A DNA stretch of 13,020 nt from an uncultured Peptococcaceae bacterium (GCA_949743265.1 CATJSX010000123.1:1-13020), one strand, 5' to 3'. Numbered from the stretch's first letter, positions 2 to 12,698 are shown. A program made the numbers and translations. Notes: generated by a model not told the origin, from the letters alone.

Positions 2-769
2 TTATTAAAGCCAACATCGAAAAGTGAAGCAGGTTACCGGCTTTATGACGATAAAGCCCTAGAAAGGTTGCAACAGATTTTATTTTTTCGGGAATTTGAT
101 ATTCCGTTAAAGGAAATCAAATGGTTGATGGACGATCCCGACCTTGATCAACAGCAGATTTTGCAAACACAGCGAAAAATGTTTATCACCAAAAAAGAAC
201 GTTTGGAACGACTAACCACCATGATTGACAACATTCTGAAAGGAGAAAACAAAATGGACTTTGCCGTATTTACTAAAACAGAAATTGAAGCGCTTTGCCA
301 AACGACATTGGCACATATGTCGCAAGAAATGCGTCAGAATATCGAACGAGAATTTGGCAGCATTAACCAGTGGAGCAACCATTATCTGGAGCGTTGTCTT
401 AAAGAAGATGTACAAAGAGGGTATCAAAAAATGGTGGAATGGTACGGAGATAAAGAGACGCTGCTGAACTCTCCCGTTTATACAGCCAACGAAGCCATCG
501 GTACAGCGTTTGCCAATCGTATTAGCGATCTTGAAAAACGATTAAGCGCTAAAAAAATGCTGCCTGTCGATTCATTGGAAATTAAAAAATTGATTGGCGA
601 ATACGGTTTCGTCATCAAACAATTTTTTCAAGTTGATTGTGAAACAGAATTGATGACATCTGTGGCCGCCGCTTACCGAAATAAACAACAAATCATTGAC
701 CAGAAATATGGTGCGGGAAGTGCTGCATTTTTTGTTCAGGCTATCGAAACATTTTACAAGGCTAACTAA
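2..769 (+). CDS. MerR-family transcriptional regulator, 5'-truncated by the window edge. The window holds only the C-terminal effector domain (possibly TipAS-like); the HTH lies upstream.
   Basis: The reading frame is open from nt 2 with no start codon before the TTG at 68. The upstream in-frame peptide ...SEAGYRLYDDKALERLQQILFFREFDIPLKEIK matches the MerR dimerisation/linker motif (YRLYdd..l.rLqqIlffR.lgfsLkeI). Stop codon at 767-769. Confidence 0.7.
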   Translation, partial: LLKPTSKSEAGYRLYDDKALERLQQILFFREFDIPLKEIKWLMDDPDLDQQQILQTQRKMFITKKERLERLTTMIDNILKGENKMDFAVFTKTEIEALCQTTLAHMSQEMRQNIEREFGSINQWSNHYLERCLKEDVQRGYQKMVEWYGDKETLLNSPVYTANEAIGTAFANRISDLEKRLSAKKMLPVDSLEIKKLIGEYGFVIKQFFQVDCETELMTSVAAAYRNKQQIIDQKYGAGSAAFFVQAIETFYKAN

Positions 770-790: not shown

Positions 791-837
791 AAAAAGCGTA
801 TCAGTTACTGCCAAAACTGATACGCTTTTATTTTTAT
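791..837. terminator. Bidirectional intrinsic terminator between the convergent MerR-like and MFS genes
   Basis: Perfect 12-bp stem AGCGTATCAGTT (795-806) / AACTGATACGCT (815-826) with an 8-nt loop. An A5 run lies 5' and TTTTATTTTTAT lies 3'. Confidence 0.7.
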
Positions 838-2273
838 AATTCTGCTTTAGCTGATTGACGACGAGCTAACGCCGCTTCATCATCATGTACTTTAAAGAAG
901 GCGATTACTAACGCAATTAGTGCCAAAATAGTGCTGAACATAAACGCAGCGTGCATTCCTTCAACGGTGGCGTGGACTTCGCCCATTGTCATAGTAGCAG
1001 TCATGACAATAGTCATGATGGTGATCATGATTGCCGTTCCGATAGAGCCTGCCATTTGTCTGGCTGTATTATTAACAGCATTGCCATGGGCGACATAACG
1101 ATTATCCAGTGCGTTAATTCCCCATGTATTGATGGGCATATTGACCATAGACATGCCAAAAGAGCGAATACAAAAAATAGAGCACAAATAAAGTGCTGTA
1201 GAATTTTCTGTAAAGAAACAAAAACTAAAAGTGGTCACTGTCATGATGCTTAGACCAACCAGCGACATTTTGCGAGGCCCAAACCTATCGAACATCATAC
1301 CGCTAATAGGACTCATAATTCCCATAACAACAGCTCCCGGCATCATTATCAAGCCTGATTTTAAAGCGCTATAGCCCAATACGTTTTGTAAATAAATGGG
1401 AAAAATAACGGTGCCAGCGATCAAACCAGCGTTGATTACCATCGTTAAAATCGTAGCATAAGCAAAAATGGGCGTTTTCAAAACTCTTAATTCCAATAAG
1501 GGTTCTTCTAATACTAACTGTCGCTTAACATAAACTACTAGTGCAACTGCGCCAATGATTAGCGGCACGATAGTTGTCATGCTTCCCCAGCCATAGCTGC
1601 CGGCAGCGCTAAAACCGTATAATAACCCACCAAAAGCGAAGGTAGAAAGAATAACGGATATCCAATCTAATTTCGGATGGCGCACTTCGCCGACATTGCG
1701 TAAAAAGAAAAAAGCAAATAAAATATCTAAAGCCGCTAATGGCACAATGAGTCTAAAAATATAATGCCAACCCCATGCGTCAACAATCCAGCCGGAAAGC
1801 GTTGGACCGATAGCCGGAGCAAAAGATACGACGATTCCAACCAAACCCATTGCAATGCCGCGTTTTTCTTTAGGAAACAATAACATCATCACCACAGAGC
1901 CCAGCGGCATCTGAATACCAGCGCCTATGGCTTGAAAAATTCGAGCGGCTAACAAAATCGAAAAACTAGGTGCAAAAGCTGCCAGCGCTGTTCCTATGGT
2001 GAATATGCTCATGGAAAACATAAATAAAAAGCGCGTTGTAAAACGATCCACTAAATATGCCGTTACTGGCACCATAATGCCATTGACCAACATAAACGCT
2101 GTAGTTAACCATTGACCTTCGCTGGCATTAATATTGAATTGGCGCATAATGCTGGGTAAAGCTGGCGATAATACCGTTTGGTTGAGAATCGTCACAAAGC
2201 CGCCAGAAATAATGATTGCTACGATAAATAAATCTCGCCTAGAAATAAACGATTTATCATTGCTCATCAGCAT
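834..2273 (-). CDS. MFS transporter, DHA2 (EmrB/QacA-like, 14-TMS) drug:H+ antiporter family
   Basis: 479 aa, highly hydrophobic. The N-terminal motif LNQTVLSPALPSIMRQFNINASEGQWLTTAFMLVNGIMVPVTAYLVDRF is typical of DHA2. It overlaps the upstream marR by 17 nt, consistent with one operon. Confidence 0.88.
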   Translation of the reverse strand: MLMSNDKSFISRRDLFIVAIIISGGFVTILNQTVLSPALPSIMRQFNINASEGQWLTTAFMLVNGIMVPVTAYLVDRFTTRFLFMFSMSIFTIGTALAAFAPSFSILLAARIFQAIGAGIQMPLGSVVMMLLFPKEKRGIAMGLVGIVVSFAPAIGPTLSGWIVDAWGWHYIFRLIVPLAALDILFAFFFLRNVGEVRHPKLDWISVILSTFAFGGLLYGFSAAGSYGWGSMTTIVPLIIGAVALVVYVKRQLVLEEPLLELRVLKTPIFAYATILTMVINAGLIAGTVIFPIYLQNVLGYSALKSGLIMMPGAVVMGIMSPISGMMFDRFGPRKMSLVGLSIMTVTTFSFCFFTENSTALYLCSIFCIRSFGMSMVNMPINTWGINALDNRYVAHGNAVNNTARQMAGSIGTAIMITIMTIVMTATMTMGEVHATVEGMHAAFMFSTILALIALVIAFFKVHDDEAALARRQSAKAEL

Positions 2274-2754
2274 AACCTCCTTGATTATGTGGGCGTTTTA
2301 AAAGAAAATCGTGCAGACAAAAATTTTTTTCGTCGTTATTTTTGGCAATGTTATCAATCATGCGTGTCAAGAGTTTTTCTAAAGACTGTAAATCTTCTTC
2401 GCTAAAATCGCTGAAACAACAATTATCAAATTCATTGAGCAATTGACGACAGTTTTGTACTGCTTGTGTGCCTTCTTCGGTAATAAATAATTGATTGCAA
2501 CGCAAATTATGGGTGTCGACCTGCTTTTTCAAAAAGCCCGCTTTTTGCAGCCGTTTGGTGGAAGCTGCTACAGAAGCCGCTGAAATATGCAGATGCTCGG
2601 CAATATCATTTTGCATACATCCCGGATAAGCAACAATATATTCTAGGATTGGCAACTGTCCTTGATATAAGCCGGTCGCGGATGTCTGGCGCTGGATAAA
2701 AATTCCCCGCAGCGCCCAAAAAGTATTCATTTTTTTTAATAATGATTGTTGCAA
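2257..2754 (-). CDS. MarR-family transcriptional regulator, first gene of the marR-MFS operon
   Basis: 165 aa with a winged-HTH core (ILEYIVAYPGCMQNDIAEHLHISAASVAASTKRLQKAGFLKKQVDTHNLRCNQLFITEEG). Start is a TTG at 2754 with a GAGAGGA Shine-Dalgarno about 10 nt upstream. An alternative ATG lies 8 codons in, so the start is uncertain. Confidence 0.8.
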   Translation of the reverse strand: MQQSLLKKMNTFWALRGIFIQRQTSATGLYQGQLPILEYIVAYPGCMQNDIAEHLHISAASVAASTKRLQKAGFLKKQVDTHNLRCNQLFITEEGTQAVQNCRQLLNEFDNCCFSDFSEEDLQSLEKLLTRMIDNIAKNNDEKNFCLHDFLLKRPHNQGGYADEQ

Positions 2755-2789
2755 CGTGCATGTGTCCTCTCTTTATATTTAAACAGCTA

Positions 2790-2809
2790 ATAGTTAATTG
2801 ATTAAATAT
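2790..2809. promoter_or_regulatory. Imperfect 20-bp palindrome ATAgTTAATtgATTAAaTAT, candidate MarR operator overlapping the predicted transcription start of the marR-MFS operon
   Basis: 16 of 20 positions are self-complementary. It sits immediately downstream of the candidate -10 (CACAAT, 2810-2815 on the - strand), which is spaced 17 nt from a perfect TTGACA -35 (2833-2838 on the - strand). Confidence 0.4.
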
Positions 2810-2846
2810 ATTGTGACAGAATACACAAGATTTGTCAAGAGAATAA

Positions 2847-2864
2847 TTGATAAACGCTTATCAA
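2847..2864. promoter_or_regulatory. Perfect inverted repeat TTGATAA-ACGC-TTATCAA, a candidate regulator binding site
   Basis: Exact 7-4-7 palindrome read directly from the sequence. It lies 9 bp upstream of the predicted -35 of the marR-MFS promoter. Confidence 0.45.
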
Positions 2865-3035
2865 CAGAGGGATTGCTGCTAGCGGAGAGAGTATCATTAT
2901 TTTGGGCTGTTGTTATTTACTATATGCTTTGTTTGACAAATTTTTTTGCCTATTGAAGATTGGAGTTCTTTTCAAAAATAAAAAGCGGTTTCATCATATG
3001 ATGCGGTGTTTTGCTTTTTATTTGGTCATTTAACC

Positions 3036-3100
3036 AAAACCGTCACGCTCAAGAACGCAAAATATTTCTTGAGTGTGATGGTTTTTTAGTTGTTTTTTAT
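3036..3100. terminator. Bidirectional intrinsic terminator that ends the - strand ABC operon
   Basis: 20-nt stem AAAACCGTCACGCTCAAGAA (3036-3055) pairs with TTCTTGAGTGTGATGGTTTT (3066-3085) with two G-U wobbles. GGTTTTTTAGTTGTTTTTTATTTTATTT lies on the + side and an A-rich run followed by U-rich sequence on the - side. Confidence 0.65.
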
Positions 3101-3105
3101 TTTAT

Positions 3106-4902
3106 TTAGCCTGAAAATTGACTTTGATATAGTTGGTGATAAAATCCTTTTTGTGCCAAAAGACTTTGATGAGTGCCTGATTCAACAATACGACCATCGT
3201 TGACAACTAGTATTTGATCAGCGGTTTTAATGGTGCTGAGACGATGAGCGATAACAAAGCTGGTGCGTCCTTTCATTAGGCGTAACAGTGATTCTTGGAT
3301 CAACATTTCGGTGCGCGTATCGATAGAAGACGTAGCTTCGTCCAGAATTAAGAGTGCTGGATCAGCAAGAATCGCTCTGGCAATAGCAATTAGCTGGCGC
3401 TGTCCTTGCGAAAGATTTTGTCCGCCTTCAGTTAGTAGCGTGTGATAGCCTTGCTCTAACTGCATGATAAAATTATGGGCATTAGCCAGTTTAGCCGCTT
3501 CAATGACTTCTGCTTCCGTAGCGTTTAAACGTCCATAGCGAATATTATCCATAATAGATTCGCTGAAGAGAAAAGTATCTTGTAGTACGATACCAATAGC
3601 GCTGCGCAAACTTCGGCGAGTAATTTGGTCAATGTCTTGCCCATCAATGAGCAGTTCGCCGCCATTTTTGCGGTAAAAGCCGGTTAATAAACTAATGATA
3701 GTAGTTTTACCAGCACCAGTAGGACCAACGATAGCTACTGTTTGACCGGCTTTAACTGAAAAAGAGGCTTCTTTCAAGATCAATTGGTTTGGCGTATAGC
3801 CAAAATTTACTGAACGAGCCATAATATCGCCGCGGATAAAGGATAATTCTTGCGCTTGCTGCCAGTCTTTTTCTGGCGGTTCATCAATGATTTCAAAAAT
3901 CCGTTCAGCGCCGGCTAATGCTGATTGAATCGTATTGAATAAATCTGCCAACGAATTAAGCGGGCGAGAAAAGTTGCGCATATACAATAAGAAAGTGAAT
4001 ACAACGCCGACTGTCAAATGCCCTTGCATGATGAAGTATGCGCCTAAAAGAGTAATCAAAACGTAGATCAAGTTGTTGATAAAGGACATAAACGGTCCCA
4101 TAGCTGAGAAAGTTTGTGCCAAGGCAAAATTGCGTTGCAGTTTATCATTGATAGCTGCAAATTCCTTGGCGACATGTTTTTGCTGATGAAAAAGTAAGAC
4201 GACTTTGCTGCCGGAAATCATTTCTTCTATGTAGCCGTTTAATTGTCCCAAACTGCGCTGATATTGACTGAAATAGCGTCTTGACAATTTGATAATGATT
4301 TTACTGACCAATAGCGTTAACGGAATCACCAACATGGCGAATGCTGTTAAGCGTGGACTTAATATAACCATAGCAATAAACATGCCGCCGACATTAATGA
4401 CGCCGCTAAAAAACTGAGTAATATTTTGCGATAAAGTGGTATTAACATTATCAACATCGTTGGTCAGACGACTCATCAAATCGCCGCTGTTGTGTGTGTC
4501 AAAAAAAGTAAGAGGCAAAGTGAGCAGACGGTTAAATAGTTGACTGCGCAGTTGTGCCGAAATATTTTGCGCCATGTCAATCATCAGGAACTGCTGCGCA
4601 TAATTGGCGATAGTACTCAATAGATACATGATTAACATAATAACGCAAATGATGGCTAGGCCAGTCAAATCACCTGTCATGATGTAGTGATCGACAGCTA
4701 CACCACTTAAGCGAGTTCCTACAATTGTAATGATGGTTGAAATCGTTACAGCAAAAAATACAACTAACAGTCTTTTCCAGCTGTCTTGTAAATAATTCAG
4801 CAGTCGCCTGAATGTGCCTTTGCTATCTTGCGGTTTAATAGGGGCTTTGAGCCGCGCATTATGTTTGCCTGACGGCGCATGGGGCGGTTTGGGTCCCATC
4901 AT
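3106..4902 (-). CDS. ABC exporter permease/ATPase subunit (type I exporter, LmrD/YheH-like) carrying the consensus nucleotide-binding site
   Basis: Walker A GPTGAGKTT, signature LSQGQRQ (non-canonical), Walker B LILDEATS with catalytic Glu, H-loop VIAHRLST. The start is revised to the ATG at 4902. Evidence for the revised start: an AGGAGAGGAGG RBS 7 nt upstream and an ATGA overlap with the upstream gene's stop. The ORF-track start at 4956 is probably 18 codons too long. Confidence 0.88.
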   Translation of the reverse strand: MMGPKPPHAPSGKHNARLKAPIKPQDSKGTFRRLLNYLQDSWKRLLVVFFAVTISTIITIVGTRLSGVAVDHYIMTGDLTGLAIICVIMLIMYLLSTIANYAQQFLMIDMAQNISAQLRSQLFNRLLTLPLTFFDTHNSGDLMSRLTNDVDNVNTTLSQNITQFFSGVINVGGMFIAMVILSPRLTAFAMLVIPLTLLVSKIIIKLSRRYFSQYQRSLGQLNGYIEEMISGSKVVLLFHQQKHVAKEFAAINDKLQRNFALAQTFSAMGPFMSFINNLIYVLITLLGAYFIMQGHLTVGVVFTFLLYMRNFSRPLNSLADLFNTIQSALAGAERIFEIIDEPPEKDWQQAQELSFIRGDIMARSVNFGYTPNQLILKEASFSVKAGQTVAIVGPTGAGKTTIISLLTGFYRKNGGELLIDGQDIDQITRRSLRSAIGIVLQDTFLFSESIMDNIRYGRLNATEAEVIEAAKLANAHNFIMQLEQGYHTLLTEGGQNLSQGQRQLIAIARAILADPALLILDEATSSIDTRTEMLIQESLLRLMKGRTSFVIAHRLSTIKTADQILVVNDGRIVESGTHQSLLAQKGFYHQLYQSQFSG

Positions 4903-6614
4903 GATAACGCCTCCTCTCCTAGCTGCGAAGCACAAATAGTACGGTAAAGCGGGCAATGGGTTAATAATACTTCATGACGTCCTTGAGCCACTAAGCGGCC
5001 TTTCTCTAAAACCAAGATTAAATCAGCGTCTTTGATACTGTTAATGCGTTGAGCAATGATTATGGTAGTGGTTCCATGCTGGTTAGTCTTTAATCGTTTG
5101 TATAAAGCGGCTTCCGTTGCGAAGTCCAATGCGCTGGAAGCATCGTCAAGAATGAGGATTTTTGGCATTTTCAGCAATGTGCGTGCAATAGTTAAACGCT
5201 GTTTTTGACCGCCGGAGAAATTACTGCCTCGTTGTTCAACCAAATGACTCAATCCTTCCGTCGTCGCATATTCAGCGAAAGACGAAGCGATGAGCGCTTT
5301 TTTAAGCAGTTCATCATCGGCTTCTTGATTGCCAAAACGAAGATTATCGGCAACTGTGCCAGAAAAAAGAATATTCTCCTGTAAAACAACACCTACTAAT
5401 TCTGATAGTTTTTGCTGACTGAGTTGTTTAATATCTACGCCACCCAGCAAAATTTTACCATCGTCAACATCATATAAGCGAGCGCATAGTGCCGCCAACG
5501 TACTTTTGCCGCTGCCAGTAGGACCGATGACACCGACGCGCAAACCTTCTTTGAGCGTAAAAGAAATATCTTCCAATACCCATGCGCCGTGTTCATGGTA
5601 CTTAAAATAGACATGTTCAAATTGTAAGTCATAACCCTGCGGCTGCGTTGCTATAACGTTTTCAGCAAGGGCAGTTTTTACCGCCAAAACGTCATTGATA
5701 CGGTCAAGTGAAGCCTTGGCACGAGAAATCGACGTCATAATCATCATTGACATCATCAATGAGTGCATTACTTGCAAAATATAGGTGATAAATGCCATAA
5801 TTTTGCCGACTTCCAATAGTTGATACTGTACCAAAATGCCACCGAACCACAAAATAGCAATAATCGAAAGATTGATGATCAATGTCACTAACGGCGACAA
5901 AATAATCATTATGCGCTGAGCCTTGATACTCCACTGTCGTAAATCATCATTACATTGGGCAAATTTCTGTCTTTGACGATTTTCGGTTACAAATGCTTTG
6001 ATCATGCGAATGCCCAACAATGTTTCGCGAGAAACATTATTTAGGTTATCCAATTTTTCCTGCATGCCTTTGAAAATGCCGTTAGCACGCGTCAGCACTA
6101 CCAGCGCCAGTACAAAAACGAGCGGTATGGTTATTCCAAAAACAACTGATAATTGCGGGCTTAAACGATAGGCCATAAAAAGACCGCCAATACACAATAA
6201 CGGCGCTCTGACCAAAATTCGCTGACTGCTTAATAAAAGACTCTGTACTTGCGAAACGTCGTTCGTTAATCTTGTAATTAACGTCGAAGGCTGAAAATAA
6301 TCAATTTCCCGAAAAGAAAAGGTCTGAATATGGTCGAATAATCGCTGGCGCAATCGTCCTCCAGCAGCAGCTGTTGATTTTGCCGAAAAGAATAGACAGC
6401 CAAAGCCACCGATCAAGCCTAATATCGCCATGAATACCATTTGACCGCCTACTCGCAAAATATAAGCAGGATCATTGTTTCTGACGCCTATATCAATAAT
6501 ATCAGCCATTAGCGTTGGTTGATACAAATCGCAATAAACTTCCAAAATCATCAATAACGGTGCTAAAACAAAGAAAATTAAACTGCCTCGCATGGTTTGC
6601 CACAATGTTTTCAT
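4899..6614 (-). CDS. ABC exporter permease/ATPase subunit (LmrC/YheI-like) carrying the degenerate nucleotide-binding site
   Basis: Walker A GPTGSGKST, signature FSGGQKQR, Walker B ILILDDASS (Asp replaces the catalytic Glu), H-loop IIIAQRINS (Gln replaces His). RBS AAAGGAGAAG upstream of the ATG at 6614. Stop overlaps the next gene's start (ATGA). Confidence 0.88.
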   Translation of the reverse strand: MKTLWQTMRGSLIFFVLAPLLMILEVYCDLYQPTLMADIIDIGVRNNDPAYILRVGGQMVFMAILGLIGGFGCLFFSAKSTAAAGGRLRQRLFDHIQTFSFREIDYFQPSTLITRLTNDVSQVQSLLLSSQRILVRAPLLCIGGLFMAYRLSPQLSVVFGITIPLVFVLALVVLTRANGIFKGMQEKLDNLNNVSRETLLGIRMIKAFVTENRQRQKFAQCNDDLRQWSIKAQRIMIILSPLVTLIINLSIIAILWFGGILVQYQLLEVGKIMAFITYILQVMHSLMMSMMIMTSISRAKASLDRINDVLAVKTALAENVIATQPQGYDLQFEHVYFKYHEHGAWVLEDISFTLKEGLRVGVIGPTGSGKSTLAALCARLYDVDDGKILLGGVDIKQLSQQKLSELVGVVLQENILFSGTVADNLRFGNQEADDELLKKALIASSFAEYATTEGLSHLVEQRGSNFSGGQKQRLTIARTLLKMPKILILDDASSALDFATEAALYKRLKTNQHGTTTIIIAQRINSIKDADLILVLEKGRLVAQGRHEVLLTHCPLYRTICASQLGEEALS

Positions 6615-6845: not shown

Positions 6846-8954
6846 TTACATAGTTTCGGTGAGAATCTGATAGACTGGAGCACCTTCACATTCTTTAGGA
6901 ATTTCAACGCCTAAAAGAACAGCAATAGTCGGCGCAACGTCTACTTCACGAATCCAGCGGTCGGTACGGTAATTCTTTTTGATTCCTTGACCAGCAGCAA
7001 AGAAAATAGGTGATAAAGAAGTATCGTTATAGCCTTGTGCCGTTGATAAACCGCTGCCATGTCCAACAGAATAATCGTCATGGACAAAACAAATAATATC
7101 GGCGCATAACGGACCGCCTAGTCCTAATAAAACAGCGTCTTTATTGTGTAGTGCCAGTGTAACGACACGATGACCTGTTTCAGGATCTTTTAAGCTGTAT
7201 AAATCCGTGATAACCCGTTCTTCCATTTCATATTTGTCTTCTGGTTCGACAATGCCATGGGGGTCTCTGCCTTTTAAGTTGATATAGATGCTACTGGAAC
7301 GAGTTTGGAAAGCCGTTGTCTTGCTCCAATCAACTTCTCTCATTTCATTGCCGTCAGCATCGCGTTTTAATACGGTGTAGCCAAATTGACGCAATGGATC
7401 AGCATTAACAAAACTAGTGTCGCCCATGCAGCGGGAACCATCGTTTTCACAGCAGTTCAAGCCATGGTCGGAGCAGACGATGATAGTCCAGCCTTCATCT
7501 AAATAATGCAGAAAAGAACCCAGATATTCATCAGTGGTTTGATAGGTTGCTTCTGCAAATTTGACCACTTCGCTTTCGTCATAACGGGAAGTAGGACGAT
7601 TCTTCATATATTTGATATAGTTGTGTGTTTGTAAATCAACATTATGATAATGAGAGAAAACAGCTTCTATGCCTTTTTCTTTGATAAGATACTGCATGCA
7701 ATCGGATTGCCATTTAGCAGCCATACGCCATTGTTCGTTATTACATTTCATAATCAAATCGGCATCGTTGCCGCTCATTTGGCTAGTTGGTGTTGGCGGA
7801 CCGAATAAATCAGTCAGTTCTTTGTGTAAAGATTTTGGGAAAAATACGCTGTCATCATTGCAGAGCATACCACAAGAAGCCCATATACGGACATAAGTAC
7901 CATCTTCAGCAACTTCTAATAGGCGCATATTGCGAGTAACTTTTGCTTCGCCTTGTGGCGTTGGGATAGTGTCATACACATGATCGGTAAAGACGTCGTT
8001 TTCTAAGATGACGATTTCTTTTTCGGTTTGTTTGTCTTTATAAATAGCCACGCGATCGTATTTGCCATTTTCATTTGGTAAAATCAACGCATAACGGATA
8101 ACTTTGCCGGATAAAAGTTGAATCATAAATTCTTTGCTGTTAGCAGGAATCTCAAATGCCCAATCTTCTGGCTCAGAAATTGGCGACATGGAACAACTAA
8201 TGCACCAATCTTCGACAGTCCACTGTACATGCTGATCTTCATCAGTGATAACGTCACACGAAACATAGCTGCTTTCAACTTTATAGCCGGGAACGTTAAT
8301 GAATTCTTCGTATTCTTTTCTGTATTTAGCAGCTTTTTCTGCCATTTCTTTGCCGCCTTTCTTTAAAGAACGGCGTCTTGGCCAAGTATAAGCTTTTAAT
8401 TCTTCGTCACCTTTTAAATCTGTTATAGGTGTGGATTTTATTTTATAGACAGGTTCTTTGGTTAAAGTGCTGGCAATAATAGCGGTGTCATCATCACATT
8501 TAGAACACCAACCGCAGCATGCGCCCGGGCTGGAACCGTCAATGGTGTATAAATTGTCGCTTTCGATAGATGGTGGGAAACTGCCGCCCGGCCAATGAAA
8601 GACTAAAGTTTTGATTCCTGCTTGTGCTGTAACGTTGAAAATAGGTTCTGCTTTCAAAAAGCGGGAAGAAAAAGCGCCTAAAGCAACATCTTTATCGGGA
8701 TCAGCTGAAATATTGTAGTCAGTGATACCGTGTGTCATAGGATAGCAGCCTGTTGCCAAAGTTGCCCATAATGGAGGCGTAATCGTTGGGTTTGCACCTA
8801 ATAACATTAAATCATCGCGGCAAGCGCCTGCATCAATCAATTTTTGGATGTTAGGTAATTTTCCTTCGTTTAACAAACGTTTGGTGAAACGAGGATCCAT
8901 ACCGTCTATCCCCAATACCATCAGTTTGTTGGTCAATCCTTTGTTTCTCAGCAT
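6846..8954 (-). CDS. Alkaline-phosphatase-superfamily protein, nucleotide pyrophosphatase/phosphodiesterase (NPP, type I phosphodiesterase)-like, 702 aa, no signal peptide
   Basis: N-terminal LMVLGIDGMDPRF...LGANPTITPPLWATLATGCYPMTHGITDY matches the NPP metal-ligand and Thr-nucleophile motif (fPTvTfPnh..l.TGlyPe.HGI). The C-terminal GHGSG...DVAPTIAVLLGVEIP matches the distal metal-site motif. RBS GAGGAGAG 7 nt upstream of the ATG. Confidence 0.78.
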   Translation of the reverse strand: MLRNKGLTNKLMVLGIDGMDPRFTKRLLNEGKLPNIQKLIDAGACRDDLMLLGANPTITPPLWATLATGCYPMTHGITDYNISADPDKDVALGAFSSRFLKAEPIFNVTAQAGIKTLVFHWPGGSFPPSIESDNLYTIDGSSPGACCGWCSKCDDDTAIIASTLTKEPVYKIKSTPITDLKGDEELKAYTWPRRRSLKKGGKEMAEKAAKYRKEYEEFINVPGYKVESSYVSCDVITDEDQHVQWTVEDWCISCSMSPISEPEDWAFEIPANSKEFMIQLLSGKVIRYALILPNENGKYDRVAIYKDKQTEKEIVILENDVFTDHVYDTIPTPQGEAKVTRNMRLLEVAEDGTYVRIWASCGMLCNDDSVFFPKSLHKELTDLFGPPTPTSQMSGNDADLIMKCNNEQWRMAAKWQSDCMQYLIKEKGIEAVFSHYHNVDLQTHNYIKYMKNRPTSRYDESEVVKFAEATYQTTDEYLGSFLHYLDEGWTIIVCSDHGLNCCENDGSRCMGDTSFVNADPLRQFGYTVLKRDADGNEMREVDWSKTTAFQTRSSSIYINLKGRDPHGIVEPEDKYEMEERVITDLYSLKDPETGHRVVTLALHNKDAVLLGLGGPLCADIICFVHDDYSVGHGSGLSTAQGYNDTSLSPIFFAAGQGIKKNYRTDRWIREVDVAPTIAVLLGVEIPKECEGAPVYQILTETM

Positions 8955-9050: not shown

Positions 9051-9322
9051 ATATATATAATATACAACTAATTCAAAATAAAATCTAATAACTATTTTAA
9101 GGCTTTTTTCAATAAGTAATAACCAATGATTATATGAATGTGGAATATTTGCCATTATCTGCTAAAGATGATTAAGCAACAACGGGTTAACAGTTATTTT
9201 TTGCTAGTTAGTCGTATTTATTTTTGGAGCTGAGAAGAAATTTTTTAAGTTCGCAACTTTTTTGTCATGATAAATAAAAATAACAGTGGTAAACTATGGT
9301 TAAAACGAAAGAGAGATGAACA

Positions 9323-10558
9323 ATGATGCAAATTATTGACAGCGAAAAAATTCGTCGACCTATCAAAATATGGGTTGACGATATGAATCATATTGAAGAA
9401 AGTTGTTTAGAGCAAGCCTATCATTTAGCCAATTTGCCTTTTATTTATCAATGGGTGGCATTGATGCCAGATACGCATACAGGAATGGGTATGCCTATTG
9501 GCGGTGTTATTGCCTGTCAGGATGTGATTATTCCTCATGCAGTGGGCAATGATATTGGTTGTGGCATGGCGTATATTAGTACCGATGTGCCGGCAGAACT
9601 TTTAACGGAGATTATCACGCCCAATGGCACACTGTTACAAGCAATAGTCGGTGATATCTTGCGCAATATTCCCGTAGGTTTTGCACATCACAAAACGGAT
9701 CAGCCTTCAGAAGTACTTGCAAAAGCGTCGCAAAATCCATCATTGTCTTTGAGCCGCCAAAGTGATTTATTGCCAGAGATTGAGGCGGCTTATCGGCAGA
9801 TTGGAACTTTGGGCGGTGGTAATCATTTTATTGAACTGCAAAAAGATGAAGCCGGCTATTTGGCGATTATGCTTCATTCAGGCAGTCGCCGTTTGGGCAA
9901 AGAAATATGTCATTATTTTAATCAACTGGCGAAAATGCTTAACGCACGCTGGCATACTAAAGTACCGGAGGAGTATGGTTTGCCGTTTTTGCCGATTGAC
10001 AGCGAAGAAGGGCAAGCGTATTTGGCGTGGATGACCTTAGCGTTAGATTTTGCTGAGGAAAATCGAGCCGTTATGTTAGAAAAAGTAAAACAGATTATCG
10101 AAAAATGGCTGGAAAAAATGGCGATTCCTATTCACTGGCAGGAAAATATTAACTGTCATCATAATTATGCTGCTTTGGAACATCATTATGGCCGCGATGT
10201 GTGGGTTCACCGCAAGGGAGCCACCAGCGCTCAACTTGGTCAATTAGCTATTATCCCCGGAGCAATGGGCAGTTTTAGCTATATAGTGGAAGGACTAGGC
10301 AATGCAGAAAGTTTTTGTTCATCTTCTCATGGTGCCGGTCGGCTATATTCTCGTAAAGGCGCTATGAAGGCTTTTTCTCAAGAAGAAGTCATAGTGGATT
10401 TAAAAAAACAAGGCGTTGTCTTAGGCAAACATCATAAAACGGATATTGCCGAAGAAAGCCGCTTTGCTTATAAAAATATTGAAGAAGTCATGGCTTTGCA
10501 AAATGATTTGGTTATTATCAAAAAACGATTGCAAACCATGGGCGTCATCAAGGGTTAA
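9323..10558 (+). CDS. rtcB: RtcB-family RNA 3'-phosphate/2',3'-cyclic-phosphate ligase
   Basis: 411 aa. All hallmark RtcB metal and GTP-binding motifs are present: MPDTHTGMG, GNDIGCGM, GGGNHFIEL, HHNYA, VHRKGATSA, PGAMGSFSY, SSSHGAGR. RBS AAAGAGAGA upstream of tandem ATG ATG. Confidence 0.92.
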   Translation: MMQIIDSEKIRRPIKIWVDDMNHIEESCLEQAYHLANLPFIYQWVALMPDTHTGMGMPIGGVIACQDVIIPHAVGNDIGCGMAYISTDVPAELLTEIITPNGTLLQAIVGDILRNIPVGFAHHKTDQPSEVLAKASQNPSLSLSRQSDLLPEIEAAYRQIGTLGGGNHFIELQKDEAGYLAIMLHSGSRRLGKEICHYFNQLAKMLNARWHTKVPEEYGLPFLPIDSEEGQAYLAWMTLALDFAEENRAVMLEKVKQIIEKWLEKMAIPIHWQENINCHHNYAALEHHYGRDVWVHRKGATSAQLGQLAIIPGAMGSFSYIVEGLGNAESFCSSSHGAGRLYSRKGAMKAFSQEEVIVDLKKQGVVLGKHHKTDIAEESRFAYKNIEEVMALQNDLVIIKKRLQTMGVIKG

Positions 10559-10567
10559 TTTGATATT

Positions 10568-10596
10568 TTGACTTCTTTATTCAAGAAGTGATGATA
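10568..10596 (+). promoter_or_regulatory. Possible sigma-70 promoter for the downstream ncRNA
   Basis: TTGACT -35 (10568-10573) with only weak -10 candidates (ATGATA/TGATAT) 17-18 nt downstream. Read-through from rtcB is equally possible because no terminator follows the rtcB stop. Confidence 0.2.
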
Positions 10597-10689
10597 TACC
10601 AGAACCGAAATTTTCTATATCAGGCATTTTGTATCTGCCGATGGTGCAGTCGGGTTTTACCCGTTGCTGTATGCCGAAAAAATTGGTTC

Positions 10690-10825
10690 AAAAAGAAGAT
10701 TGAAGGTTCGAGTCCTTCACTGTCAAAAGACAGTTGGCGAAACGGTTAACGCAAATGTAGAAGATGTGTTGATGGTTCGAGTCCATCACTGCAAAAGGCA
10801 GTTAGCGTAATTGGTAGCGCGATCT
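10690..10825 (+). ncRNA. Two tandem diverged tRNA-elbow-mimic modules (T-arm, capped acceptor-like helix, D-arm-like hairpin), a candidate Y-RNA/YrlA-like structured ncRNA
   Basis: Module A (10703-10752): GAAGG-TTCGAGT-CCTTC, ACTGTC-AAAA-GACAGT, GCG-AAACGGTTAA-CGC. Module B (10771-10820): GATGG-TTCGAGT-CCATC, ACTGC-AAAAG-GCAGT, GCGT-AATTGGTA-GCGC. The T-loop is identical to the tRNA consensus GGTTCGAnTCC. The module B D-arm differs by one nt from the canonical GCTCAGTTGGTAGAGC. A compensatory A:T to T:A change keeps the T-stem intact between copies, and helix changes are also compensated in the acceptor-like hairpin. Confidence 0.55.
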
Positions 10826-10888
10826 TGAAGTGACCAGTACAGTCATGAATCACATTATCCTAAGCAAAAGGATACCCACAACTATTCA

Positions 10889-10915
10889 TCGGCAAGGCGA
10901 GCCGACAGATTTTTT
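10889..10915 (+). terminator. Weak intrinsic terminator candidate after the tRNA-like ncRNA
   Basis: TCGGC-AAGGCGA-GCCGA 5-bp stem followed by CAGA and T6. A second small hairpin GACGC...GCGTC lies at 10916-10937. Confidence 0.35.
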
Positions 10916-11041
10916 GACGCAAAAGCAATATAGCGTCAAAACAATCGCGCGGCACCGAAAAAATGACCAGCAGAAGATAGGATACCGTTTAAAACCGTTT
11001 TTTGCCAGATAAAGAGCAGGGCTTTATTCCGCAAAAGCGCG

Positions 11042-11050
11042 TGTTAAACT
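11042..11050 (+). promoter_or_regulatory. Candidate extended -10 promoter (TGtTAAACT) for the repeat+SPFH gene
   Basis: TGnTAAACT motif about 78 nt upstream of the ATG, with a poor -35 (TTTATT). A strong RBS AAAAGGAGG lies 7 nt before the ATG at 11128. Confidence 0.25.
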
Positions 11051-11127
11051 AAATATCATCTCCGTCATTTCTTTGGTGCCAAACCGATGAATAACGATTT
11101 TTCCCTCAATTAAAAGGAGGTTTTTAT

Positions 11128-12657
11128 ATGTCAATGATTACAGAGCAGCAAGTCGGTATTTTAAGCAAAAACGGACGGTTCCAAAAAGTTTTAACCGCCG
11201 GTAAATACTATTATCCTCAAATTTTAGGCTATCAATTGGAAATTATTGAGGCAAATGGATTGGTACAGCCTCAATCTGTACCGCTGGCTATTTTAGCGAA
11301 AGATCCTAATTTTTGTCGCCTGACTGCTATGGTTGAAATAACGGATACAACATTAGCCGCTCATTACAAAGATGGATGCTTGTCAGAAATCATTTATACG
11401 TCTGGTCGGTATTATTATTGGAATATTTTACAAGATCATAGTTTCTTGCTGATAAGTTTAACGACGCCTGATATTGCTCAAGAAGTACCGTTGTCGTTGT
11501 TTGATCATATCAACAAACAATTTTTTATAGAGATTAACGTTGCCGAAGGCGAAGGGGCATTGGTGTACTTTGATAATAAATTAGAAAGATTATTAACCAA
11601 CGGTCATTATTATTTCTGGAATTATCTTACAAAAGTAACTTATAAGATTATTACGCTGAATTCACCCTTTATTTCTTGTGTGTCGCAAGGATTGGAAGCG
11701 GAATTATTAGCGGATCATCCTGCTATTGCTGAAAAGCTCGCCGTAATAGATGTGCCTGATGGCAACATTATGTTGCACTATGTCAATGAACGTTTGCTGG
11801 ATGCTTTGCCCAGCGGTTGGTATGGCTATTGGCAAACAAGCGGCGACCATACTTTTCGTTTGCTGGATATTACTGATGCGGAAAGTGCCAATACATTAGG
11901 CGACGAAAGCGAAACCATTTTTCGGGTAGTGAATGAAAAATGGTATGATCGTTATGACGTCGCTTCCGGTGAAGTCGGTTTGTTATATCGTGATAATGTG
12001 TTGATTAAGACACTTCCCAGCGGACGCTATTATTTTTGGCGGTATCGTGAGAAAATTACGCTGGAAATTTACGATTTGCGTTTGCAGCCATTAGATATTA
12101 CGGGTCAGGAGATATTAACTAATGATAAAGTAATGGTTCGTTTGAATTTTACCTGTACATATAGAATCGACGACCCTGTTGCCTTGGCTTCTGGTTTGCA
12201 AAATTACGCCAGTCAGTTATATACGTTCGTTCAGCTGGTGTTGCGAGAATATATCGGTCAGTATAAATTAGATGAACTGTTAGCGCAAAAAGAGCAGATT
12301 GCTTCTAAAGTATTGGCATTGTTGCAGGAACAGAATAAATTTGCTCTGACGTTTGTTAGCGCTGGGCTAAAGGATATTATTTTGCCCGGTGATGTTCGGG
12401 AGATTATGAATACTGTGCTTTTGGCAGAAAAGAAAGCCCAAGCCAATGTCATTACTCGACGTGAAGAAGTGGCTTCCACACGCAGTCTTTTGAATACGGC
12501 TAAATTGATGGACGAAAATCACACGCTTTATAAATTGAAAGAATTGGAGTATTTGGAGCGCATCTGTGATAGCGTCGGTTCAATTTCTGTTAGTGGCGGC
12601 GGGGATTTATTAGGACAATTGGAGCGTTTATTAGTAAGCAAAAAAACAGAAGAATAA
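11128..12657 (+). CDS. Soluble SPFH/band-7-domain protein with five N-terminal tandem ~67-aa beta-rich repeats
   Basis: The C-terminal region (aa ~280-480) fits the SPFH pattern: ...LEIYDLRLQPLDITGQEILTNDKVMVRLNFTCTYRIDDP...YKLDELLAQKEQIASKV...AGLKDIILPGDVREIMNTVLLAEKKAQANV. Five repeats share G-x-h-x-h-Y-x-[DN]-x-x-L-x3-L-x2-G-x-YY-x-W with the YY at aa 27, 95, 161, 232 and 301. Repeat 5 is the native SPFH N-terminal beta-segment. No hydrophobic TM segment is present. Confidence 0.85.
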   Translation: MSMITEQQVGILSKNGRFQKVLTAGKYYYPQILGYQLEIIEANGLVQPQSVPLAILAKDPNFCRLTAMVEITDTTLAAHYKDGCLSEIIYTSGRYYYWNILQDHSFLLISLTTPDIAQEVPLSLFDHINKQFFIEINVAEGEGALVYFDNKLERLLTNGHYYFWNYLTKVTYKIITLNSPFISCVSQGLEAELLADHPAIAEKLAVIDVPDGNIMLHYVNERLLDALPSGWYGYWQTSGDHTFRLLDITDAESANTLGDESETIFRVVNEKWYDRYDVASGEVGLLYRDNVLIKTLPSGRYYFWRYREKITLEIYDLRLQPLDITGQEILTNDKVMVRLNFTCTYRIDDPVALASGLQNYASQLYTFVQLVLREYIGQYKLDELLAQKEQIASKVLALLQEQNKFALTFVSAGLKDIILPGDVREIMNTVLLAEKKAQANVITRREEVASTRSLLNTAKLMDENHTLYKLKELEYLERICDSVGSISVSGGGDLLGQLERLLVSKKTEE

Positions 12658-12661
12658 AATG

Positions 12662-12698
12662 AAAAAAAGCGGTAGGAGAGAATCCTGTCGCTTTTTTT
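12662..12698. terminator. Bidirectional intrinsic terminator after the repeat+SPFH gene, shared with the convergent LysR-like gene
   Basis: A7 run, then nested stems AGCG...CGCT and AGGA...TCCT (12668-12692), then T7. Confidence 0.7.

Follow-up and report, generated by a model that had tools for sequence, protein, structure and literature searches.

Does the succession of an RNA ligase gene, a tRNA-like RNA and an SPFH-domain gene form a system, and if so, what would this system do? The question is raised by a stretch of 13,020 nucleotides from an uncultured Peptococcaceae bacterium (GCA_949743265.1 CATJSX010000123.1:1-13020), hereafter the window, where rtcB, a structured RNA and a gene for an SPFH (Band-7) protein follow one another. 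With a confidence somewhat above even, the locus is taken here to be a member of the Band-7 (SPFH)/tRNA-like RNA/RNA-ligase neighbourhood and to encode an RNA-repair particle. The unit comprises the following elements, where L081 is the nearest relative among the related loci:

9247-9277, plus strand: candidate promoter/operator of the unit, a conserved block AAGTTCGCAACTTTTTTGTCATGATAAAT upstream of rtcB (match in L081)
9323-10558, plus strand: rtcB, 3'-phosphate/5'-OH RNA ligase of 411 amino acids (Pfam PF01139, E 2e-109)
about 10606-10990, plus strand: structured RNA in the gap between rtcB and the SPFH gene (covariance model, folds)
11128-12657, plus strand: soluble SPFH (slipin-type) protein of 509 amino acids with four N-terminal beta repeats, the SPFH domain and a 62-residue C-terminal helix
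12662-12698, no single strand: bidirectional intrinsic terminator that closes the unit (fold)

The three genes are co-oriented on the plus strand, with 569 nucleotides between rtcB (PF01139) and the SPFH gene (PF01145), and the unit ends at a strong bidirectional terminator folding at -25.7 kcal/mol on the plus strand and -21.3 kcal/mol on the minus strand (z about -7.7 on both). An earlier note, made from the sequence, had placed rtcB, a tRNA-like RNA and the SPFH gene here, followed by such a terminator, and had described the protein as soluble and multi-repeat and the canonical partners as absent; all of this is borne out by the Pfam and covariance-model matches, the folds, the hydropathy of the protein and the scan of the window genes. 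The RNA mimicking the tRNA elbow was found as well, with elbow fold and covariation, not as the single unit supposed but as two modules in a longer RNA. The protein scan comprised nine open reading frames, including every one of more than 100 amino acids outside another gene, and RtcA, RtcR, TROVE/Rsr, archease and PrfH were not identified among them. The sigma-54 promoter pattern TGGCAC-N5-TTGCA had no match near rtcB, the RNA or the AAGTTCGCAACTTTTTTGTCATGATAAAT block, and sigma-54 control of the unit was rejected on that ground. The ligase carries the metal-binding and nucleophile (guanylylation) motifs MPDTH, GNDIGCG, GGGNHF, HSGSR and SHGAGR, which align to the P. horikoshii enzyme (PDB 1uc2/4dwq) with the catalytic residues intact. 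It falls below the NCBIfam cut-offs for both the E. coli-type and the PrfH-linked RtcB and therefore belongs to another subfamily.

The RNA comprises the elements listed below, where bits refer to R1, a covariance model built from related loci:

10589-10603, plus strand: candidate extended -10 promoter of the RNA, a TGATGATATACCAG box just after the rtcB stop codon (conservation)
10623-10639, plus strand: 5' hairpin GGCA...UGCC, compensated to GGCG...CGCC in L081
10642-10676, plus strand: conserved 5' element, formed by UGGUGCA, a hairpin and UGUAUGCCG as a bulged helix, candidate protein-binding site (covariation)
10692-10760, plus strand: tRNA-like module 1, with T-arm 10702-10718, closed acceptor hairpin 10719-10734 and D-arm 10735-10753 (58.4 bits)
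10761-10828, plus strand: tRNA-like module 2, with T-arm 10771-10787, closed acceptor hairpin 10788-10802 and D-arm 10805-10820 (68.9 bits)
10830-10846, plus strand: anticodon-arm-like hairpin GUGAC-CAGUACA-GUCAU, with a 7-nucleotide loop centred on GUA (sequence, fold)
10870-10877, plus strand: second copy of the conserved box, GGAUACCC (sequence)
10889-10915, plus strand: weak terminator-like hairpin with U6, possible alternative 3' end of the RNA (terminator scan)
10980-10987, plus strand: conserved GGAUACCG box, kept in most of 80 related loci

The core of the RNA is formed by the two modules, which are tandem and circularly permuted, a closed hairpin replacing the acceptor stem; the R1 matches at 10692-10760 and 10761-10828 are the reason why the gap is read as two modules inside a longer conserved RNA. 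Unit 1 reads GAAGGTTCGAGTCCTTC (T-arm), ACTGTCaaaaGACAGT (closed hairpin) and GGCGAAACGGTTAACGC (D-arm), and unit 2 reads GATGGTTCGAGTCCATC, ACTGCaaaagGCAGT and GCGTAATTGGTAGCGC in the same order. The nucleotides of the tRNA elbow are present: the GG of the D-loop, the TTCGA of the T-loop, and U8 with A14. A closing stem was identified in the window only for module 2 (AAGAU/AUCUU); module 1 of L081 (5530-5594) has a closing helix, GGAAATA/TATTTCC, which module 1 of the window lacks. The first AAGAU of the window could also pair with the AUCUU following module 2, enclosing both modules.

The structure was evaluated first on 26 hand-picked modules, where the four-helix module gave 88.9% of cells paired and a covariation score of 0.685 (0.21 in shuffles, and about 40% paired when slid), with changes on both sides in 16 of the 19 pairs. 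On the 65 matches of R1 the same structure gave 91.0% paired and a score of 0.678 against 0.178 when shuffled, figures from an alignment fitted to the model. The 5' element stands 5' of the modules and has the consensus C-R-G-U-G-C-N, hairpin, N'-G-U-A-U-n-C-Y-G. Over 61 loci its R:Y pair is G:C in 45, A:U in 14 and a mismatch in 2, and its N:N' pair is C:G in 30, A:U in 14, G:C in 9 and U:A in 2; because these pairs covary, the element is a real helix with a 1-by-3 internal loop. Its inner hairpin shows compensatory change in L081. Selection acts on the RNA to keep two tRNA-elbow folds as well as the bulged 5' helix.

Upstream, the TGATGATATACCAG box is kept in L081 as GTGATAATATACCAG, and a similar TATATAC box stands 5' of the RNA in L005, L008, L020, L025, L024 and L076; a promoter scan lists TTGACT-16-GATGAT at 10568-10595. 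Two other candidates in the gap were rejected, a hidden gene, since no conservation from the window to L081 was seen for the open reading frames of the gap, and an internal terminator at 10889-10915, which the scan lists with a fold no better than shuffles (z -0.9).

Known RNA families do not accommodate this RNA. At gathering thresholds Rfam called no RNA in the window, and ARAGORN called none. Under permissive settings Rfam gave YrlA (RF02553) at 10742-10840 with 35.3 bits against a gathering threshold of 69, and an 'inter-module' tRNA reading with 26.3 bits against 29, which scores 40.3 bits with the Rfam tRNA model in L076. In 12 related loci only two marginal tRNA calls were obtained and none at the YrlA threshold. 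On the strength of these Rfam and ARAGORN results the gap RNA cannot be filed as YrlA or as tRNA. A canonical tRNA would have an open acceptor of 7 base pairs with a free 3' end and an anticodon arm in its place and would be called by tRNA finders; the window RNA does not conform to this, its acceptor stems being closed hairpins and its scores those just given. It does present the permuted domain of YrlA, namely T-arm, closed acceptor stem-loop, D-arm and closing anticodon-like stem. The reading frames scanned in the window include no rsr/TROVE neighbour, and the conserved non-tRNA element is a bulged helix of another kind than the helix of YrlA.

A closed acceptor with an open anticodon stem is the topology of permuted tRNA genes, as discussed for YrlA (10.1101/312249). 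The modules might be permuted pre-tRNAs that would mature to a working tRNA-like molecule, the open anticodon-stem ends being ligated by RtcB and the closed acceptor loop being opened, and both the adjacent rtcB and the 'inter-module' scores in the window and L076 speak for this. It is nevertheless very unlikely, as the acceptor stems have only 4-7 base pairs with short loops and no CCA, many of the related loci have no RtcB, and no bacterial splicing endonuclease is known (10.1101/312249).

L081 keeps RtcB, a gap of 606 nucleotides and the SPFH gene between flanking genes that differ from those of the window. The amino-acid identity is 64% for SPFH and 69% for RtcB. Module 2 is 94% identical in nucleotides while the coding sequences are 65-70% identical. 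Compensatory changes between the two loci were identified in module 1, the 5' hairpins and the acceptor stems: the T-stem of module 1 is GAAGG/CCTTC in the window and GGAGG/CCTCC in L081, and its acceptor stem is fully compensated. The AAGTTCGCAACTTTTTTGTCATGATAAAT block (9247-9277, 30 nucleotides) is near-identical in L081 despite the other upstream genes there and may be a regulatory site of the cassette. What moves as one cassette is made up of the three parts together with this upstream block. Ahead of the SPFH gene the two loci have otherwise diverged but share GCCAGATAAA (11001-11010) and TTATTCCGC (about 11027-11035).

A genome scan gave 80 related loci from Clostridia, Paenibacillus and other Bacillales, Synergistaceae and Erysipelotrichaceae, and in most of them a T-loop motif lies 250-600 nucleotides upstream of the SPFH gene on the same strand. 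When 785 kb were searched on both strands, R1 matched 65 sites, all on the SPFH strand and 64 of them directly upstream of the SPFH gene. RNA-repair genes were identified nearby in 51 of the 80 loci: RtcB in 45, of two or three classes and either upstream or downstream of the SPFH gene, and otherwise RlaP or a T4-Rnl1-like ligase with PNK/HD. Counted over all 80 loci, the RlaP nucleotidyltransferase (PF10127, 'RNA repair pathway') is present in 12 and the T4-Rnl1-like ligase with PNK/HD in one. The last is L053 (6288-8426), which lacks RtcB and has the T4-Rnl1-like RNA ligase and a kinase/HD-phosphatase protein 3' of the SPFH gene; L036 (6125-6922), also lacking RtcB, has RlaP in this place. 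From the partner counts, the RNA and SPFH form a constant core and the repair enzyme is exchangeable. The RNA and the SPFH gene are specifically associated with repair enzymes. Just downstream of the RtcB gene of L052 (7011-7235, minus strand) there is a group II intron domain match (RF02001, 34.7 bits).

A related cassette was also identified in E. coli STEC639 (CP061233.1, L087 4640-6898), between yjbD and lysC. It comprises a sigma-54-like promoter TGGCACGCTTCTCGCA (4661-4676) 5' of the RNA, a tRNA-like module that R1 matches weakly (14.7 bits, 4775-4828), a slipin gene whose product is 33% identical to the window protein, and then a nucleotidyltransferase gene. The E. coli slipin cassette is present in 1632 of 5426 complete genomes (about 30%) and is always chromosomal. 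The RNA and SPFH pair thus recurs in Clostridia, Bacillales, Synergistaceae, Erysipelotrichaceae and E. coli.

These data bear on one alternative, decaying tRNA pseudogenes that lie by accident beside unrelated rtcB and membrane-type SPFH genes. The failure of ARAGORN and Rfam to call the RNA at their thresholds speaks for it; against it, every helix has compensatory changes, conservation is 94% in module 2 but 65-70% in the genes, the same arrangement is found in 64 independent loci, the cassette is kept between different flanks, and the SPFH protein has no membrane anchor. Accidental adjacency is already contradicted by the covariation and recurrence data and is extremely improbable.

The constant position of the RNA brings in a second alternative, where it would be mainly a cis-acting leader of the SPFH gene, an attenuator or switch whose tRNA-like domain senses tRNA cleavage, modification or protein binding, and where alternative pairings of the 5' element and the GGAUACCG box set the read-through into the SPFH gene. 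The RNA is upstream of and co-oriented with SPFH in 64 of the 65 matches, even where RtcB lies downstream. In most of the 80 loci the GGAUACCG box stands after the modules and before the SPFH start. Its sequence can pair with either half of the 5' element; because these halves also pair with each other, the pairings are mutually exclusive. This complementarity could be a switch or a closing stem. From 12 sequences RNAalifold selected the long-range helix that joins the 5' element to the box; a U-run was identified 3' of the box in L007, L015, L033 and L025; and in E. coli the sigma-54-like promoter stands 5' of the RNA, with no separate slipin promoter seen by eye. The long-range helix, however, is almost devoid of covariation, and Paenibacillus-type sequences disrupt it and instead preserve the local helix by compensatory changes. 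The box lies 120-200 nucleotides from the start codon with no conserved terminator hairpin, the tandem, independently folded and strongly constrained modules are more like stable Y-RNA-like RNAs, and the Y RNAs of Salmonella are also co-transcribed within an operon, that of rsr-rtcBA (10.1101/312249). The leader function as the main role of the RNA is regarded as unlikely. As for the box itself, several different partners came out of duplex folding, the 5' element's first half fails to pair with it in Paenibacillus-type loci, and a local-hairpin model has, by eye, no covariation at its first flanking pair.

The anticodon-arm-like hairpin has a counterpart in the same place in L081 (5669-5689, AUGAC-CUGUCAA-GUCAU) and introduces a third alternative. 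The queuosine-family anticodons (GUN) are those of Asp, Asn, Tyr and His; colicin E5 cuts the Tyr, His, Asn and Asp tRNAs between positions 34 and 35, leaving ends of the type sealed by RtcB, and the bacterial tRNA-guanine transglycosylase (TGT) recognises U33-G34-U35. The RNA might be a decoy or sensor of anticodon nucleases, its hairpin mimicking the loops of queuosine-family tRNAs or other nuclease targets, so that it would soak up the toxin or report the attack by its own cleavage, while an SPFH cage would hold the RNA and RtcB would reseal it. GUN was identified in 20 of 70 anticodon-like loops (GUC 11, GUU 4, GUA 4, GUG 1), a count not corrected for shared ancestry, and in only 5.2% of comparable hairpins elsewhere in the same loci. 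The loop of the window has GUA and that of L081 is CUGUCAA, and a related RNA in Pelobacter derives from tRNA-Asn (PMC3543383). Against this stand the shared ancestry that the GUN count ignores, the many loci with other triplets (UUU, UUC, GCA, AGG) or with no such hairpin, the A33 instead of U33 in the window loop, and a hairpin no more stable than shuffles. In addition, the open reading frames of the window contain no toxin gene, and PADLOC gave no defence match. A decoy or sensor is possible and must be considered improbable. A mobile or defence context was rejected, with 0 phage matches, 0 PADLOC matches and only 9 'plasmid' records, mostly megabase-sized replicons.

The SPFH protein contains Band_7 (PF01145) at residues 278-447 of its 509 amino acids (E 2e-28), and four copies of a beta motif of about 65 amino acids lie N-terminal to this domain. 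In its AlphaFold model, which is confident (mean predicted local distance difference test score 88.4), one finds four beta-rich repeats, the SPFH domain and, at 421-482, a helix of 62 residues. No transmembrane segment was identified in the protein, the highest 19-residue hydropathy being 1.22. Thousands of SPFH relatives exist, with lengths clustering near 365, 500 and 640 amino acids because the number of N-terminal repeats of about 65 amino acids differs. A correspondence between repeat number and RNA module number was rejected: L076 has four T-arms and a short protein, L001 one T-arm and a long protein. In structure comparison of the predicted model the major vault protein (MVP) was the only full-length match, while stomatin, HflK/C, prohibitin and erlin matched the C-terminal half only. 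A profile search of the PDB gave stomatin (slipin) as the closest, with QmcA and HflK also found and MVP not, and the search for a vault repeat with Pfam found Band_7 only. The vault likeness is an architectural resemblance of the predicted model.

This resemblance can be followed part by part. As predicted from the model, the window protein shares with the eukaryotic vault (MVP, vault RNA, TEP1) the succession of beta repeats, SPFH-fold domain and long helix, its solubility and the small structured RNA; it has four repeats, not nine, shows no sequence match to the vault repeat and lacks a TROVE partner and PARP. The vault cage is a 39-fold assembly, and any cage of the window protein is hypothetical. 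With the membrane SPFH scaffolds (stomatin, HflK/C, QmcA) it shares an SPFH domain followed by an oligomerisation helix, but not the N-terminal membrane anchor nor a partner of the NfeD or protease type (the Pfam scan of the window reading frames found no NfeD or FtsH gene). The most far-reaching form of the decoy idea joins both halves of the unit: the SPFH-repeat protein would form a soluble vault-like cage housing a GUN-tRNA-mimic RNA, as an anticodon-nuclease decoy or sensor that passes broken RNA to RtcB or another ligase. This must be called quite doubtful; if true, the particle would be the prokaryotic equivalent of the eukaryotic vault and possibly its forerunner.

The reading favoured here, an RNA-repair particle, comprises several proposed steps. 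Transcription of the RNA would start at a promoter of its own or continue from rtcB by read-through. The long C-terminal helix of the SPFH protein would mediate assembly into a ring or cage, like those of stomatin, HflK/C and the vault protein, and the protein would bind the RNA, with the conserved 5' helix as the most plausible site. By means of the tRNA-shaped modules and the anticodon-like hairpin, tRNA-handling factors or broken tRNAs would then be brought to RtcB, and RtcB would seal the 2',3'-cyclic phosphate and 5'-OH ends left by anticodon nucleases. The scheme parallels that of Ro60 and Y RNA beside RtcB in Salmonella.

The neighbourhood as such has been predicted before. The abstract of Burroughs and Aravind (2016) is said to name, as cofactors with a scaffolding role, SPFH/Band-7 modules together with a novel tRNA-like molecule. 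In the account of that work given by Wang et al. 2018 (10.1101/312249), RtcB adjoins a Band-7 protein and a predicted b7a-tRNA (for 'band 7-associated tRNA'), and YrlA is occasionally found beside a Band-7 protein. So far as described there, it resembles the window in several respects: the genes for a Band-7 protein and RtcB lie together with that of a predicted tRNA-like RNA, other repair enzymes including RlaP substitute in some cases as in the loci studied here, and the proposed role of scaffold and cognate RNA is the same. The b7a-tRNA, known by description, 'strongly resembles an authentic tRNA', whereas the units of the window are permuted (YrlA-like), tandem and part of an RNA of about 400 nucleotides that has further conserved elements. 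The window has a Band-7 gene beside a ligase gene and an adjacent tRNA-like RNA, and the arrangement recurs across lineages with partner exchange, as expected for a member of this neighbourhood. Already in 2012 the genome paper of Pelobacter carbinolicus reported a mutated tRNA-Asn (Pcar_R0061), which has A33 and whose 3' end is buried, beside rtcA, rtcB and a gene resembling that of stomatin, and its authors suggested a substrate or guide role (PMC3543383). A 2026 study placed the SPFH gene PaFlo8 inside the rtc locus of P. aeruginosa (PMC13086221). These two loci resemble the window in having a tRNA-derived RNA or an SPFH gene beside rtcB, and A33 is common to the Pelobacter RNA and the window hairpin; they differ in keeping rtcA and a divergent rtcR, and the RNA of Pelobacter, unlike the modules of the window, has an almost normal cloverleaf whose 3' end is recessed.

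The Rsr (Ro60)-YrlA/YrlB-RtcBA locus of Salmonella Typhimurium is like the window in the tRNA elbow made of T-arm, closed acceptor stem-loop and D-arm, in having the RNA inside the RtcB locus, and in having more than one RNA unit per locus. Unlike that operon the window lacks Rsr/TROVE, RtcA, RtcR and a sigma-54 promoter, and its partner is the SPFH protein; its RNA differs from YrlA in the Rfam score (35.3 below 69) and in a conserved non-tRNA part that is the bulged 5' helix and not the YrlA stem. With the RtcR/sigma-54/RtcBA operon the window shares the intact RtcB, but not RtcA, RtcR or the sigma-54 promoter.

The earlier note had presented the locus as a candidate undescribed module, and this does not hold, because the trio was predicted in 2016 (Band-7/b7a-tRNA/RtcB; via 10.1101/312249) and foreshadowed in 2012 by Pelobacter (PMC3543383). 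What is already known is the trio as a predicted RNA-repair system, to which the window locus adds another member. The other proposals fared better: the recurrence it had asked about was found in all the groups named above, beside RtcB or other repair enzymes, and the idea of a repair particle where the SPFH protein replaces Rsr, with its vault analogy, agrees with the association and the full-length match of the model to MVP. Binding of the RNA by the SPFH protein and a role in ribotoxin damage are, as in that note, what we infer.

Several points weigh against a repair particle. The RNA is always 5' of the SPFH gene, which a cis-acting leader fits equally well, and the number of protein repeats does not follow the number of RNA modules. 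No recognised repair gene lies within 5 kb in 29 of the 80 loci, several of which are short contigs. The SPFH protein is acidic (pI 5.0), which is atypical for an RNA binder. The b7a-tRNA had not been validated according to Wang et al. 2018 (10.1101/312249), and the trio is known from predictions and comparison. Finally, deletion of paFlo8 gave no phenotype in growth, motility, biofilm and oxidative-stress assays, which did not cover tRNA damage (PMC13086221).

The other genes of the window are unrelated to RNA repair and were identified by Pfam scan as follows:

68-769, plus strand: TipAS-domain gene
within 834-6614, minus strand: two ABC exporters, a MarR regulator and an MFS transporter
6846-8954, minus strand: type I phosphodiesterase-family gene of 702 amino acids
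downstream of the unit, minus strand: LysR fragment

The minus-strand genes at 834-6614 resemble a drug-efflux set, where the MarR gene overlaps the start of the MFS transporter (2257-2273) and the two ABC exporter genes overlap by 58 nucleotides (4899-4956). Two large paralogs of the type I phosphodiesterase family, of 702 amino acids in the window (6846-8954, minus strand) and 680 amino acids in L084 (10774-12816), lie on either side of the cassette and a LysR gene in this organism; because the neighbourhood of L081 lacks them, a relation to the cassette is improbable.

The neighbourhood was predicted in 2012 and 2016; the elements new here are the RNA architecture, in which a covarying bulged 5' helix and the GGAUACCG box accompany two permuted tRNA-like modules; a reusable covariance model for finding the modules; and a possible queuosine-family bias in the anticodon-like loops. 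If the mechanism is right, bacteria would have a second RNA-protein particle that serves RNA repair, a parallel to that of Ro60 and Y RNA but built on an SPFH scaffold. We know of no established function for the eukaryotic vault; since the architecture of repeats, SPFH domain and helix is shared with MVP together with a small structured RNA, a bacterial model could throw light on it. Since 1632 of 5426 complete E. coli genomes have a related cassette, the question of function is within reach of ordinary genetics.

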